From the NCBI GenBank assembly GCA_963797235.1, contig CAWCOX010000008.1, positions 115,764 through 179,763 on the forward strand: a stretch of 64,000 nt of DNA, given 5' to 3'. Made by a program: the position numbers and the translations under genes. Origin of the DNA: an uncultured delta proteobacterium. Lineage in GTDB: Bacteria; Desulfobacterota; Desulfobaccia; Desulfobaccales; 0-14-0-80-60-11. Of this stretch, positions 14,958 through 23,106 are shown one piece after another. Numbering within the stretch: position 1 is the stretch's first letter; each line of letters begins with the position of its first letter. The notes beneath the pieces were generated by a model that worked only from the letters and a program-made list of their open reading frames with translations, did not search any database and was not told where the DNA came from.

Positions 14958-14993
14958 CTTAACATCTGATAAATTAATTAAACAAGTGTTAAG
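14958..14993 (+). promoter_or_regulatory. inverted repeat CTTAACA-N22-TGTTAAG, candidate enhancer (UAS) for the hdr-type operon
   Basis: 7-bp inverted repeat centred about 100 bp upstream of the -24 element at 15077. A related TTAACA motif is duplicated at 22802-22823 next to the EBP gene. Confidence 0.3.
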
Positions 14994-15076
14994 GAGAGGT
15001 TTTTCCCAGGCCTGGGATGGGATTTGCAACTAACTAAATTTCTTGCTCAATTTTTATGCAGCGGCATTCGGGCTCT

Positions 15077-15092
15077 TGGCATTGATATTGCT
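15077..15092 (+). promoter_or_regulatory. sigma-54 (-24/-12) promoter
   Basis: TGGCAT-tgata-TTGCT with exact GG-N10-GC spacing, 60 nt upstream of the tusA ATG. Confidence 0.75.
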
Positions 15093-15152
15093 TTATTAAA
15101 ACCCGAACCCCCCGGCGAACAGACCGGGATCAGCAATTAGAAGGAGAAAACG

Positions 15153-15404
15153 ATGGCAACCGATCTGACGACTCTGCAAGCCGCCGTGGTGGTGGACTGC
15201 CGGGGCAGCGCCTGCCCGGGGCCACTCCTGGAGGCCAAGAAGGCCATTGGCCGGGTGAAAGTGGGCGAGATCCTGGAGGTGCTCTCCAATGATCCGGGCA
15301 CCAAGAGCGATATGCCCCTGTGGGCCATGAAAGTGGGTCACGAATTCCTGGGCTCCCTGGCCGCGGACGGCTACGACCGGATTTTTGTGGTCCGAAAGAA
15401 ATAG
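15153..15404 (+). CDS. tusA: sulfur carrier protein TusA/SirA family
   Basis: DCRGSACPGPLLEAKKAI (CPxP active-site motif). SD gaaggag. Confidence 0.85.
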   Translation: MATDLTTLQAAVVVDCRGSACPGPLLEAKKAIGRVKVGEILEVLSNDPGTKSDMPLWAMKVGHEFLGSLAADGYDRIFVVRKK

Positions 15405-15475
15405 GCTGGACCTCAGGGCAAGGGGGCGCTGACCCTGGCAACCACCGGGAGATTGGCTATCTGATAGGAGGCCGC

Positions 15476-15937
15476 ATGGGGGCCGAGAAGTACGCCGGCA
15501 AAATATTGATTCTGGCCACGGAAAGCTGCGCCTATCCAGGGGCCGACGCCGTGGGCCAGGGGCACCAGAGCTATCCGGCCAATACCTTCATCCTCCGGGT
15601 CAAGGACCCGGTGCTCTTCCCGGAGAAATTTTATCTGGATTGCTTCGCCAAGGGCATCGCCGGCATCATCATCATGTCCTGCGGGGTGGAGTCGCCCTAC
15701 CCGGGGTCCTATGAAGCCCTGGCGAAGCGCATCGACCGGGTCTATCCCCTGATGAGGGCGAGCGGCCTGGATATTCGCCGGCTGCGGCTGACCGCCATCT
15801 GCACGGTCTGCACCCGGGCCTTTCTGAACGAAGTGCGGCTGATGAACGACCTGGTCTCGGAGTTGGGACCGCCCGGCCGGGAGCGGCCGGCGGCGGCCGT
15901 TCAGGAGCAGCAGGCATGGGTCCGCAGCCAAACCTGA
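15476..15937 (+). CDS. MvhD/FlpD-like protein (Cys-depleted variant)
   Basis: KILILATESCAYPGADAVG...YPANTFILRV...GIIIMSC follows the FlpD fold pattern. Several cluster-binding Cys of canonical MvhD are missing. SD aggagg. Confidence 0.7.
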   Translation: MGAEKYAGKILILATESCAYPGADAVGQGHQSYPANTFILRVKDPVLFPEKFYLDCFAKGIAGIIIMSCGVESPYPGSYEALAKRIDRVYPLMRASGLDIRRLRLTAICTVCTRAFLNEVRLMNDLVSELGPPGRERPAAAVQEQQAWVRSQT

Positions 15938-21346: not shown

Positions 21347-21406
21347 AGTGGCACAGGCTTCTCCCAGCCTGGGTTCCTCACAGGCCAGAGGCCTGTGCCA
21401 CTTAAG
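21347..21406. repeat. AGTGGCACAGG...CCTGTGCCACT structured 60-nt element (copy 1)
   Basis: Long hairpin with 11-bp terminal stems. A second copy of about 75% identity, in opposite orientation, lies at 51034-51094. Confidence 0.75.
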
Positions 21407-21407
21407 C

Positions 21408-22790
21408 TTAAGCAGTAATCAGTTTGTGCACGTCGATGCCGTATTTTTTCATGCGGTGCCAGACGGTGACCCGGCTCACGCCCAAGAGGGTCGCAGCCTG
21501 GGACTGGTTGCCGCCGGCCTGGCGCAGGGCGTTGACCAGGGCGGTTTTTTCATCACTGGCCCCGGCGGGCGTGGTCGCTGGTGGAGTTTCCCGGGAGAGT
21601 TCCAAGCCGCTCAGTTTGGGGGGCAGGTGCCCAGGGGCGATGAGGCCGTTCTCGGCCACCACAAAGGCGTATTCCAGGGCGCCCTGGAGTTCCCGGACGT
21701 TGCCGGGCCAGGGGTAGCCCAGGAAGATCTTCATGGTCTCCCGGGTGAGGCCGACGATCTCCTTGCCGCTGCGCCGGCTTAGCTGCTTCCGGAAATGCTC
21801 CACCAGCAAAGGGACGTCCTCCAGGCGCTCCCGGAGCGGGGGCAGGTGGATGGGAATGACGTTGATGCGGAAAAACAGGTCTTCCCGAAATTTGCCTGCT
21901 GAGACCAGGGCTTCCAGGTTGCGGTGAGTCGCCGTGATGATGCGGGCGTCGGCGGTGATGGGCCGGGATTCCCCCACCCGCTCAAATTGCTTGGTTTCCA
22001 GGACCCGCAGGAGCTTTACCTGGATGGCCGGGGGAATATCGCCGATTTCGTCCAGAAAGATATCCCCCCGGTTGGCCGCCTCGAAGCGGCCCTGGCGATG
22101 GGTGTAGGCCCCGGTGAAGGCGCCCTTGACGTGGCCGAAGAGCTCGCTTTCCAGCAGGGATTCGTTGAGGGCGGCGCAATTACAGGTGATGAAGGGCCCC
22201 TCCCGCCGCCGGCCCAGGGCGTGGATGGCGTGGGCCACCAGCTCCTTGCCGGTGCCGCTCTCGCCGAAGATGATCACCGGGGCTTCGCTTTGGGCGGCTT
22301 TTTGGGTGAGGTCGAAGACCTGCTGCATGCGGGGGGATTTACCCACCATGCCGTGAAAGTCGCCGGCAGTATCCACGAGCTTGGAAAGCTGCTGGATCTG
22401 TTCATCCCGGCGAGCCAGTTCCGAGATGTCGGTTAAGGTTTCCACCGCGCCCAGGACCTGGCCGGTCTCATCCCGCAGGAGGGCGGCATTTTTGAGGATA
22501 GGCACGTAGGTCCCGTCTTTGCGCATGTAGAGGCAGCGTTTGCGGGTGGCCGCCCCTTGCTCGAAGAGGTCGCACCACTGGGCCTTGCCTTTGGTGCGGG
22601 CGGTGGAGCAGATATCGCACTTCAGGATGGTGCAGGGGCGGCCGATGATTTCCTCCCGGCGGTAGCCCATGATCTGTTCGAAGGCCTCATTGACCATGAG
22701 GATGGTGCCGTCGGGGCTGGCCACCATGAGGCCGTCGTTCATGGTGTTGATAATTTCTTTCAGGTAGCGGTTGATCTTGTCTTCCTGCAT
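21408..22790 (-). CDS. sigma-54-dependent transcriptional activator, PAS-AAA+-HTH, no receiver domain
   Basis: Cys-rich PAS ([27 protein letters not shown]...CTILKCDIC), [20 protein letters not shown], and [25 protein letters not shown]. Confidence 0.9.
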
Positions 22791-22801
22791 AGCCTGGACC
22801 T

Positions 22802-22823
22802 TGTTTTAACAGATGTTTTAACA
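22802..22823. promoter_or_regulatory. tandem TGTTTTAACA-ga-TGTTTTAACA in the divergent EBP / tusA-like promoter region
   Basis: Perfect 10-bp direct repeat 12 nt upstream of the EBP start codon. Confidence 0.3.
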
Positions 22824-22869
22824 TTAAGATATCATAAAGCGCCCAGGATGAAAAGCTGGATTTAATCCC

Positions 22870-23106
22870 ATGAAAGCTAATCAACAACTGGATATTTGCG
22901 GGGAGATGACTCCCGTCAGCCTGGCCATCTGCAAATGCACCCTGGCCCGACTGGCGTCCGGGGCGGTCTTGGAAATCCGCCTGCGGGATCGAGATACCCT
23001 GGCGGATTTGCTGATGATCGTGGAGCGCTCCGGGGATCAGGTCCTGGCCTGGGAAAACCGGGAGGAGCACTACCTTTTGTGGGTAAGGAAAAGTATCCCT
23101 GGATAA
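22870..23106 (+). CDS. TusA-related small protein (non-canonical active site)
   Basis: LDICGEMTPVSLAICKCTLARLASGAVLEIRL has a TusA-like fold pattern, with CGEMTP in place of CPxP. Confidence 0.6.
   Translation: MKANQQLDICGEMTPVSLAICKCTLARLASGAVLEIRLRDRDTLADLLMIVERSGDQVLAWENREEHYLLWVRKSIPG

Follow-up and report, generated by a model that had tools for sequence, protein, structure and literature searches.

In a 64-kb window of a contig from an uncultured delta proteobacterium (GenBank CAWCOX010000008.1, positions 115,764 to 179,763; all coordinates below are positions in this window), we identified eight co-directional genes on the + strand, spanning 15153-21335, which combine a redox module resembling heterodisulfide reductase (Hdr) with the sulfur-relay proteins TusA and DsrE. 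Genes were called by open reading frame (ORF) listing, translation and family scans. The first gene, tusA (15153-15404), encodes an 83-aa protein (PF01206, E 1.6e-19) with the active-site Cys21 in the sequence ACPGP, and is followed by a mvhD/flpD-like gene (15476-15937; 153 aa; PF02662, E 2.4e-14). Two genes for different HdrA paralogues come next, the product lengths given here being those obtained once a one-nt insertion in each gene is corrected (see below). HdrA1 (15916-17212; 431 aa) consists of a thioredoxin-reductase-like flavin domain with an inserted 2x[4Fe-4S] ferredoxin domain and has neither the N-terminal nor the C-terminal domain of HdrA; HdrA2 (17284-19222; 645 aa) has the N-terminal cluster domain with VCHCGG, an insert-free flavin domain and a C-terminal ferredoxin domain. 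Downstream lie gene X (19312-19641), specifying a Cys-free winged-helix protein of 109 aa, an hdrC-like gene (19669-19971) for a 100-aa 2x[4Fe-4S] ferredoxin subunit without a membrane domain, and an hdrB-like gene for a CCG protein (19976-20930; 317 aa, again after correction of a one-nt insertion; PF02754, E 9e-9). The last gene, dsrE(Sec) (20964-21335; 123 aa; PF02635, E 3.5e-14), includes an in-frame TGA (21213-21215) for selenocysteine (Sec). Convergent with the operon, a gene on the - strand (21408-22790) encodes a 460-aa sigma-54 enhancer-binding protein of PAS-AAA+(GAFTGA)-Fis-type helix-turn-helix architecture, and divergent from the latter, on the + strand, is tusA2 (22870-23106; 78 aa; PF01206, E 3.6e-9). 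These identities and positions agree with an initial annotation made from the DNA sequence.

The order and the common direction of the eight genes likewise stand as first described, but the gaps between them, though short, are not uniformly minimal: from tusA to dsrE, successive genes are separated by 71, -22, 71, 89, 27, 4 and 33 nt. No + strand terminator above chance was found inside the operon. The hdrA1-hdrA2 spacer contains two GC-rich tandem hairpins (17212-17258, +), which lack a T-run on the + strand and are kept in close relatives only; further GC-rich hairpins without T-runs are present in the spacer between hdrA2 and X (19228-19270). The hairpins of both spacers may act in RNA processing or RNA stability and so fix the ratio of the subunits. 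An inverted repeat (21347-21402) with 16-nt arms, 94% complementary, occupies the space between the convergent dsrE and activator genes and is likely a bidirectional terminator. An Rfam scan of the window yielded nothing at gathering score; in the operon region, there were only two sub-threshold matches to microRNA models, both on a terminator-like hairpin.

The cluster clearly does co-occur in other genomes, as its gene order recurs in some 40 of them at species level. With the CCG protein as the query, 915 homologues were found at E <= 1e-10, the best 120 of which are full-length and 75-91% identical. With each GTDB species represented by a single genome, a scan gave 46 loci (designated here by L numbers), which were then searched by tblastn with all ten window proteins. 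The order tusA-mvhD-hdrA1-hdrA2-X-hdrC-hdrB-dsrE was found wherever the contig was long enough, so that the neighbourhood check called for by the initial annotation came out in favour of recurring synteny: the order tusA-mvhD-hdrA1-hdrA2-X-hdrC-hdrB(-dsrE) is shared by approximately 40 species-level genomes from two domains of life, and across bacteria it holds at 49-93% HdrB identity. Its bacterial carriers are many metagenome-assembled genomes (MAGs) of Desulfobaccales, Syntrophales and those labelled "delta proteobacterium", a Desulfatiglandales MAG (L035), Desulfatirhabdium (L042) and Desulfamplus magnetovallimortis (L040), the single carrier found that is in culture. The core from tusA to hdrB also occurs in three archaeal MAGs, two of Archaeoglobaceae (L038 and L041) and a third that bears the label Nitrososphaeria (L044). 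Of these, L041 gave no match for tusA; the other two have their DsrE-family genes ahead of tusA and not after it. A 49%-identical CCG protein, looked up independently (L051), again belongs to a full cluster with the convergent activator gene. The comparison of loci thus supports the eight genes as a conserved unit. In L035 (9420-10424) and L040 (9799-10566), dsrE is followed by a gene for a conserved Cys-rich protein of ~235-255 aa that belongs to no family, and in L035 a TusA-like ORF of 95 aa comes after it.

Both HdrA paralogues have the domains first ascribed to them, that is, the inserted 2x[4Fe-4S] domain in HdrA1, and the VCHCGG cluster and C-terminal ferredoxin domain in HdrA2. HdrA1 matches residues 142-558 of solved HdrA proteins (E 1e-104 to 2e-111 for four of five structures and 8.5e-87 for 7BKB), while HdrA2 matches them in two stretches, residues 3-237 and the C-terminal part, but without the insert (E 8e-99 to 4e-125). 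The match of either paralogue to the sHdrA structure 6TJR is only E 1e-28 to 1e-33. GGGxAG and the four-Cys motif CxGxRD...CSxxCC are present in both proteins and kept in every one of their 31-32 orthologues, as are all other motifs for the flavin (FAD) and the clusters. HdrA1 and HdrA2 are therefore probably complementary halves of a methanogen-type HdrA, predicted to pair as a heterodimer that mimics the HdrA homodimer; the complementary domain coverage is consistent with a heterodimer in which a single electron path of that homodimer is reproduced.

The MvhD-like protein had been described as Cys-depleted, which is true of the canonical [2Fe-2S] ligands, two of five being kept in the alignment to solved MvhD (7BKB_F and 5ODC_D), but not of the protein as such, which has acquired a new C109-x2-C112 pair, invariant in orthologues. 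The HdrC-like protein finds its best NCBIfam match in the N-terminus of QmoC (positions 2-94 of 360; E 1.6e-22), ahead of HdrC itself (E 2e-13), and its eight Cys residues are invariant in 45 sequences.

In the CCG subunit, one intact motif was recognised, C218-x34-CC-x33-CxxC, the five Cys of which (C218, C253, C254, C288 and C291) are kept in 82-84 of 86 diverse relatives. When the two halves of the protein were compared by hhalign, residues 104-200 aligned with the C-terminal CCG domain (E 0.003), with YSG in place of CCG and DPHT in place of CPxC, which weakly indicates that the Cys-less N-terminal region is a degenerate first CCG domain. Among solved structures, the subunit matches best the CCG domain of the "iron-sulfur-binding reductase" 9OJN, and among NCBIfam models the lactate dehydrogenase subunit LdhH (E 3.9e-12); the match to DsrK is weak (E 0.009).

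Protein X, initially noted as a winged-helix-like protein of 110 aa, is indeed such a protein of 109 aa: the AlphaFold model (predicted local distance difference test score, pLDDT, 79) has a long N-terminal helix followed by a winged helix-turn-helix. It has ~500 homologues of similar length (~109 aa), belongs to no Pfam family and has no Cys in any of 33 orthologues. Searches with the sequence against PDB returned no match, and Foldseek returned weak ArsR/SmtB-like matches (SmtB/SqrR/CzrA) at E ~1e-3 and a TM score of ~0.5. From Archaeoglobaceae to Desulfobaccales, the gene keeps its place between hdrA2 and hdrC, which points to an integral role; X may be a subunit of the complex or an ancestral, operon-internal regulator.

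The active-site Cys of TusA1 (C21, in the CPGP motif already recognised in the initial annotation) is present in 30 of 30 orthologues; the protein also weakly matches YedF models (E 6e-8). TusA2 has the fold and the divergent position assigned to it as a second TusA-like protein, but in place of the carrier Cys of CPxP there is a Thr (T14-P-V-S), another residue, Cys21, being invariant. BLASTP gave no alignment between TusA1 and TusA2.

That DsrE is a selenoprotein is borne out by comparison of the loci. The active-site column holds TGA (28 loci) or Cys (10 loci), and the reading frame and the protein sequence are conserved past the TGA; this Sec/Cys pair makes DsrE a genuine selenoprotein candidate. 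The motif is [U/C]-x-P-C, with the second Cys three residues after the Sec or Cys. A hairpin (GATCAGTCAGGCTGACTTGATC, 21239-21260, +) begins 23 nt past the UGA and resembles a selenocysteine insertion sequence (SECIS). The SECIS-like hairpin (GATCAGTCAGGYTGACTTGATC) is near-invariant in the Sec loci, where only the loop varies between C and T, and degenerate at synonymous sites in the Cys loci; it offers no covariation to count, its folding energy is that of shuffled sequences (z 0.15) and it has no Rfam match. The nearest solved relative of DsrE is 3MC3 (E 8.9e-10), to the active-site Cys of which the Sec aligns. 3MC3 is the Sulfolobus protein DsrE3A (SSO1125), a TusA partner encoded beside sHdr genes (PMC4175335). 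DsrE-like UxxC proteins (Kryukov and Gladyshev 2004) are listed as a functionally uncharacterised selenoprotein family (PMC13188914); this family and the DsrE described here have the PF02635 fold and UxxC in common, with the difference that here the gene is the last of a conserved Hdr-like operon, a context for which no source was found in the literature.

Variable neighbours of the cluster are also related to sulfur. In five loci (L001:4049-4501, L005, L045, L024 and L025), a rhodanese-related selenoprotein of the NF041203 "LYCAU" family, with LYCGU specified by a TGA, is encoded between tusA and mvhD; the window does not have this gene. Genes similar to those for coenzyme A-disulfide reductase occur near the cluster in L038, L009 and L020, additional DsrE-like genes in several loci, and YedE-TusA genes upstream of the cluster in L004, together with a "Se/S carrier" gene. 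The Sec/Cys pair of DsrE, its kinship with DsrE3A, these neighbours and the exchange for a CstR-like regulator described below strengthen the predicted link of the cluster to sulfur relay.

Upstream of tusA, a sigma-54-type -24/-12 element (TGGCATTGATATTGCT, 15077-15092, +) has the GC of its -12 part 62 nt before the ATG. The near-consensus promoter proposed ~60 nt before tusA thus exists as an element; the lone match is not above chance, since at most one mismatch allows five such matches in the window against 4.1 expected. Of 32 related loci, however, 22 have TGGCAY-N5-TTGC at 59-97 nt ahead of tusA, the distant L035 and L040 among them, and it is from this conservation at the same position, and not from the single match, that the promoter derives its significance. 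A second -24/-12 candidate (TGGGATGGGATTTGCA, 15013-15028) was rejected, being unconserved in relatives. Further upstream are the palindromes TTAACATCTGATAA (14959-14972, +) and TAAACAAGTGTTAA (14979-14992, +), whose TTAACA..TGTTAA blocks are conserved in an alignment of 23 sequences (the window and 22 loci). TTAACA-N2-TGTTAA has three matches in the 64 kb, where 0.27 are expected: two are those upstream of tusA, and the third (TTAACAGATGTTTT, 22806-22819, +) lies between the activator gene and tusA2 and overlaps a sigma-70-like -35 hexamer. By position and conservation, the palindromes upstream of tusA are likely activator sites for the enhancer-binding protein. Between them and the promoter, an AT-rich spacer (CAACTAACTAAATTT, 15027-15041, +), with a partly conserved column pattern, might possibly be a DNA-bending site of the integration host factor (IHF) type.

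The activator itself is as initially annotated: it matches PF00158 with E 2.7e-69, contains GAFTGA, has no receiver domain and starts with a Cys-rich PAS domain. Of the residues Cys53, Cys58, Cys61, Cys73 (and Cys86) in that domain, the first four are kept in 19-20 of 20 orthologues. The domain is nearest to LOV domains but without their flavin-binding residues, and its Cys spacing is one that we take to resemble the iron-sulfur PAS domain of NreB. The activator gene adjoins the cluster in more than 20 loci. Sigma-54 control of the operon is well supported in silico, because the conserved -24/-12 element, the palindromes, the AT-rich spacer, the adjacent activator gene and the palindrome beside that gene all point to it. 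A sigma-54 promoter occurs at nifH in the same window (see below), implying that the organism uses RpoN.

The -24/-12 element, the palindromes and the activator gene occur together, and exactly those seven loci that are without them (L004:3600-3896, L007, L012, L015, L018, L019 and L024) have a 98-aa gene of the CsoR family (PF02583) directly upstream of tusA. Its product has Cys39, Tyr64 and Cys68 and no His at the metal-ligand position, and NCBIfam gives only sub-threshold matches, to RicR, RcnR and FrmR. Presumably, this C39/Y64/C68 pattern without His is that of CstR, a persulfide sensor, and not of a copper sensor. In these loci the CsoR-family gene takes the place of the sigma-54 promoter and activator, an exchange of regulators on one and the same operon.

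How does this operon relate to systems already described? With the HdrABC-MvhAGD complex of methanogens (e.g., 5ODC), it shares the CxGxRD...CSxxCC cluster, the N-terminal cluster domain and the inserted and C-terminal ferredoxin domains of HdrA, as well as an HdrC with 2x[4Fe-4S], a CCG catalytic subunit and a protein of the MvhD fold. In methanogens, however, HdrA is a single polypeptide, whereas its domains are split here over HdrA1 and HdrA2, and HdrB has two Cys-bearing CCG domains, whereas here one intact motif is found and the match to HdrB is E 0.15. The operon further differs by its 100-aa HdrC, by an MvhD minus three of the five canonical Cys, by the lack of a hydrogenase and by TusA and DsrE as partners. 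As for the methanogen substrate, CoM-S-S-CoB, the hosts of the cluster are Desulfobaccales-like bacteria and Archaeoglobaceae, with no methanogens among them, and the window showed no genes of methanogenesis. The working analogy for the U/C-x-x-C site of DsrE is offered by DsrK and DsrC of DsrMK(JOP), where a single catalytic CCG domain with a 2x[4Fe-4S] module acts on a two-Cys sulfur bridge of a small carrier; DsrK is membrane-associated and quinol-linked, though, and the carrier here has the DsrE fold, not the DsrC fold. The CstR-controlled cst operon of Staphylococcus places TusA-type carriers under a two-Cys regulator of the CsoR family, as in the seven loci above, and the YTD/DsrEFH type II clusters of Desulfobacterota bring together TusA and DsrE-family proteins in sulfate reducers (PMC13293266), but unlike the operon described here, neither of the two includes an Hdr-like redox module.

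The cluster shares modules with methanogen HdrABC, with QmoABC and with sHdr (the latter two are compared below) but fits none of them, failing some of the defining tests of each, in line with the difference from sHdr, Qmo and Mvh/Flx-Hdr claimed at the outset. No published description of this gene order was found by full-text search, the coverage of which left out some reviews on HdrA and TusA; the eight-gene operon is apparently undescribed.

We tentatively interpret the operon, at a little under even chances, as encoding a soluble cytoplasmic Hdr-like complex that would act as a ferredoxin-linked reductase of sulfane sulfur bound to TusA and DsrE, with the formation of the complex, the direction of electron flow, the substrate and the inducing signal all put forward as predictions. 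The HdrA1-HdrA2 heterodimer would provide one complete electron path, and the HdrC-like ferredoxin would wire the flavin to a single non-cubane-type iron-sulfur site in the CCG subunit. Cys21 of TusA would take up sulfane sulfur and pass it to the Sec (Cys in some lineages) of the DsrE3A-like protein, where the second Cys of U/C-x-x-C could resolve the perselenosulfide with the release of H2S. What is left would be an intramolecular Se-S (or S-S) bond in DsrE, or else a TusA-S(n)-DsrE bridge, and this "heterodisulfide" could be reduced by the CCG subunit in the way DsrK acts on the DsrC trisulfide. The electrons would most likely come from reduced ferredoxin, via the flavins of the HdrA pair and HdrC; there may be a second electron partner, in which case the flavins could bifurcate or confurcate the electrons. 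The activator with the Cys-rich PAS domain would switch on the sigma-54 promoter, the CstR-like regulator would de-repress the operon in other lineages, and sulfane sulfur or redox stress might be the inducing signal for either regulator.

Sulfate reducers and their relatives have many Hdr-like proteins, the substrates of which have been unclear for two decades, and in this cluster the neighbouring genes, for TusA and a DsrE3A-like (seleno)protein on either side of the module, point to a likely one. Were the interpretation correct, the operon would represent a third type of Hdr-sulfur relay beside sHdr and DsrMK/DsrC, it would give a function to the long-orphan family of DsrE-like selenoproteins, and organisms with a central place in the anoxic sulfur cycle would be seen to have a soluble route for sulfane sulfur that is linked to ferredoxin. 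The existence of a cultured carrier, D. magnetovallimortis, makes the idea directly testable. A wider proposal appears doubtful to us, i.e., that the operon defines an unrecognised class of Hdr-type enzymes in Thermodesulfobacteriota sulfate reducers and Archaeoglobi, with the Sec-containing DsrE3-like protein as the equivalent of DsrC and a split, ferredoxin-coupled HdrA possibly capable of bifurcation or confurcation; if true, it would provide an energy-linked cytoplasmic route for the turnover of S0 and persulfide, switched on by sulfane sulfur.

Several observations weigh against a ferredoxin-linked persulfide reductase. Three of the operon genes are frameshifted in the window sequence. 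The operon encodes no electron-input module (hydrogenase, formate dehydrogenase, NAD(P)H domain or membrane subunit) and most of the [2Fe-2S] ligands have gone from the MvhD-like protein; for these reasons, the operon does not name its redox partners. Protein X, whose fold is that of DNA-binding proteins, may not belong to the complex. The "HdrB-like" CCG protein does have a CCG domain but is no close HdrB, as its match to solved HdrB (5ODC_B) is E 0.15 and a single CCG domain is intact; its AlphaFold model, from 38 close homologues, is too poor for use (pLDDT 53.5). Moreover, the next CCG relatives (39-44% identity), in archaeal MAGs, are encoded directly upstream of LutC/LutB-like LUD-domain genes (L046, L048, L050, L053 and L054), so that the CCG chemistry of the operon need not be disulfide chemistry. 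Since the CCG subunit is only remotely HdrB-like, a protein-bound persulfide or polysulfide, already proposed as the substrate in the initial annotation, is suggested by the sulfur-related neighbours and the Sec/Cys site of DsrE, and not by the catalytic subunit.

The same parts could in principle work in the oxidative direction, as in sHdr, with the CCG subunit oxidising, towards sulfite, the sulfane sulfur delivered by TusA and the DsrE3A-like protein and the electrons leaving via the HdrA pair, a possibility we regard as improbable. The sHdr complexes of Hyphomicrobium, Acidithiobacillus and Sulfolobales are, as here, Hdr-like and tied to TusA and DsrE3-type transferases, so that the carriers of the operon, including a DsrE nearest to DsrE3A among solved proteins, are of the sHdr-associated kind, and regulation of the sulfane-sulfur type is likely in both. 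A gene for a small non-redox protein, here X, is found between hdrA and hdrCB, as it is in shdr operons. Sulfur-oxidation modules have been argued to exist in many sulfate reducers (PMC13293266); should such an oxidation apply, these organisms would gain a cytoplasmic branch for sulfur oxidation or disproportionation. However, sHdr comes with LbpA and lipoate-maturation genes, none of which were found in the window or in the annotated loci L001, L004 and L051, and with hdrC1B1 plus hdrC2B2 and a single minimal sHdrA, whereas one hdrCB pair and two HdrA proteins with ferredoxin domains are present here. Methanogen HdrA (E 1e-87 to 1e-125) is a far closer match to the two paralogues than sHdrA is, the ferredoxin domains of the paralogues suit low-potential electron transfer and no obvious high-potential acceptor is encoded. 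The hosts, too, differ in being strict anaerobes, and the DsrE in using Sec.

The frameshifts raise the question of whether the operon has been decaying into pseudogenes in this organism. The initial annotation overlooked them and took HdrA1, HdrA2 and the HdrB-like protein for products of intact genes, yet each of the three genes carries a one-base insertion. Alignment with two relatives, and gap-by-gap comparison with the closest, L001 (GCA_040960995.1; 90-93% nucleotide identity), located three uncompensated +1 insertions within 6.2 kb: at ~17198-17199 in hdrA1, at ~17383-17387 in hdrA2 and in the C-run 20231-20234 of the hdrB-like gene. In the sequence as given, hdrA1 has lost its stop and the ORF extends to 17541, into the start of hdrA2, the frame of hdrA2 shifts after VCHCGGNISDAVDVAQ, and the hdrB-like gene is split at ~20230. 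The proteins of 431, 645 and 317 aa exist only after correction, and the corrected proteins align end to end with their homologues. Three such insertions in so short a stretch would suit gene decay, but similar one-base frameshifts are found in other genes of the window, a histidine kinase gene at its HATPase_c domain (~7.8 kb; ~7600-8100, +) and a nifE-like gene (~56.3 kb; ~55950-56500, -), and all three insertions in the operon are located in short homopolymer runs. The ratio of nonsynonymous to synonymous substitution rates (dN/dS) against L001 is 0.12-0.21 for the three frameshifted genes, within the operon-wide range of 0.07-0.28 (0.07 for tusA) and not above that of flanking genes. L034 (MFD00008.bin.2.116), which with L001 is the nearest relative and is a soil MAG from long reads, is likewise rich in indels. 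The frameshifts elsewhere in the window, the low dN/dS and the indel-rich long-read relative indicate that the insertions are most likely assembly errors and not gene decay, which we consider quite improbable; the window seems to carry indel errors of an assembly-wide kind.

The likeness to Qmo invites another explanation, namely a soluble Qmo-type complex (QmoAB-HdrCB, as in Gram-positive sulfate reducers) that would serve APS (adenosine 5'-phosphosulfate) reductase or another reductase, with TusA and DsrE loosely associated. Qmo complexes, the QmoAB-HdrCB variant included, belong to sulfate reducers and sulfur oxidisers. Two HdrA paralogues, an MvhD-like module and an HdrC-like protein with the QmoC N-terminus as its best match are common to both. 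Soluble HdrCB in place of QmoC is known (PMC10504309, PMC3333476); QmoAB-HdrBC variants are on record, as is a "type II" QmoAB that is closer to HdrA, occurs with or without Dsr/Apr and is functionally unclear in its role (PMC10504309). Canonical QmoA, however, is described with FAD and one four-Cys centre only, and QmoB with a fused MvhD-like C-terminus (PMC4911364), and the proteins of the operon differ from both: mvhD stands apart as a gene of its own, upstream of hdrA1, the C-terminus of HdrA2 is a ferredoxin domain, and HdrA1 has an inserted ferredoxin domain of which QmoA descriptions make no mention. QmoC has a haem-b membrane domain, whereas the HdrC-like protein corresponds to its N-terminal stretch only. 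No aprBA or APS reductase gene was found in the window or in the Pfam-annotated neighbourhoods of L001, L004 and L051. The operon adds tusA, X and dsrE(Sec), of which tusA and dsrE are the conserved partners, and it would be under sigma-54 or CstR-like control; a regulator of the sulfur-sensing type favours an inducible over a housekeeping role. A Qmo-type function is thus very unlikely.

We give equally little credence to a non-sulfur substrate, such as a 2-hydroxy acid as in LutABC, for the CCG, HdrC and HdrA proteins, with TusA and DsrE maintaining a cofactor or cluster. The CCG subunit would allow for it, given that its nearest relatives outside the cluster are the LutC/LutB-associated ones and its best NCBIfam match is LdhH. 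The cluster includes no LUD-domain or dehydrogenase subunit, though, its conserved and variable neighbours are all sulfur-trafficking, and the regulator swap is to a CstR-like protein. That the operon handles selenium, with TusA/YedF-like, DsrE and rhodanese proteins trafficking it and the Hdr module making selenide, is barely credible: the weak YedF match of TusA1, the two cluster-linked selenoproteins (DsrE and, in relatives, the rhodanese) and the YedE, TusA and "Se/S carrier" genes in L004 speak for it, but ten lineages pair the same cluster with a Cys-containing DsrE, the use of Sec at redox-active Cys positions is common in such anaerobes and no proof of selenium metabolism, the window contains no selA, selB, selD or tRNA-Sec, and the gene with an AIRS domain 3.4 kb upstream (10730-11794, -), a candidate for SelD, was rejected as such because it is purM (TIGR00878, E 8e-131).

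Elsewhere in the window, a nifH-nifI1-nifI2-nifD-nifK-nifE-nifN cluster extends over 54576-62730 (-), with an exact sigma-54 -24/-12 element (TGGCACACGCCTTGCT, 62769-62784, -) just upstream of nifH. A pair of genes of the nrfHA type for nitrite ammonification (44214-46246, -) encodes a cytochrome c552 nitrite reductase and a NapC/NirT cytochrome. A gene at 34125-34955 (-) combines a 2-thiouracil desulfurase-like domain (PF04463) with DUF1722, and an exact match to TGGCAY-N5-TTGCW is situated near it, at 33985-34000 (-).

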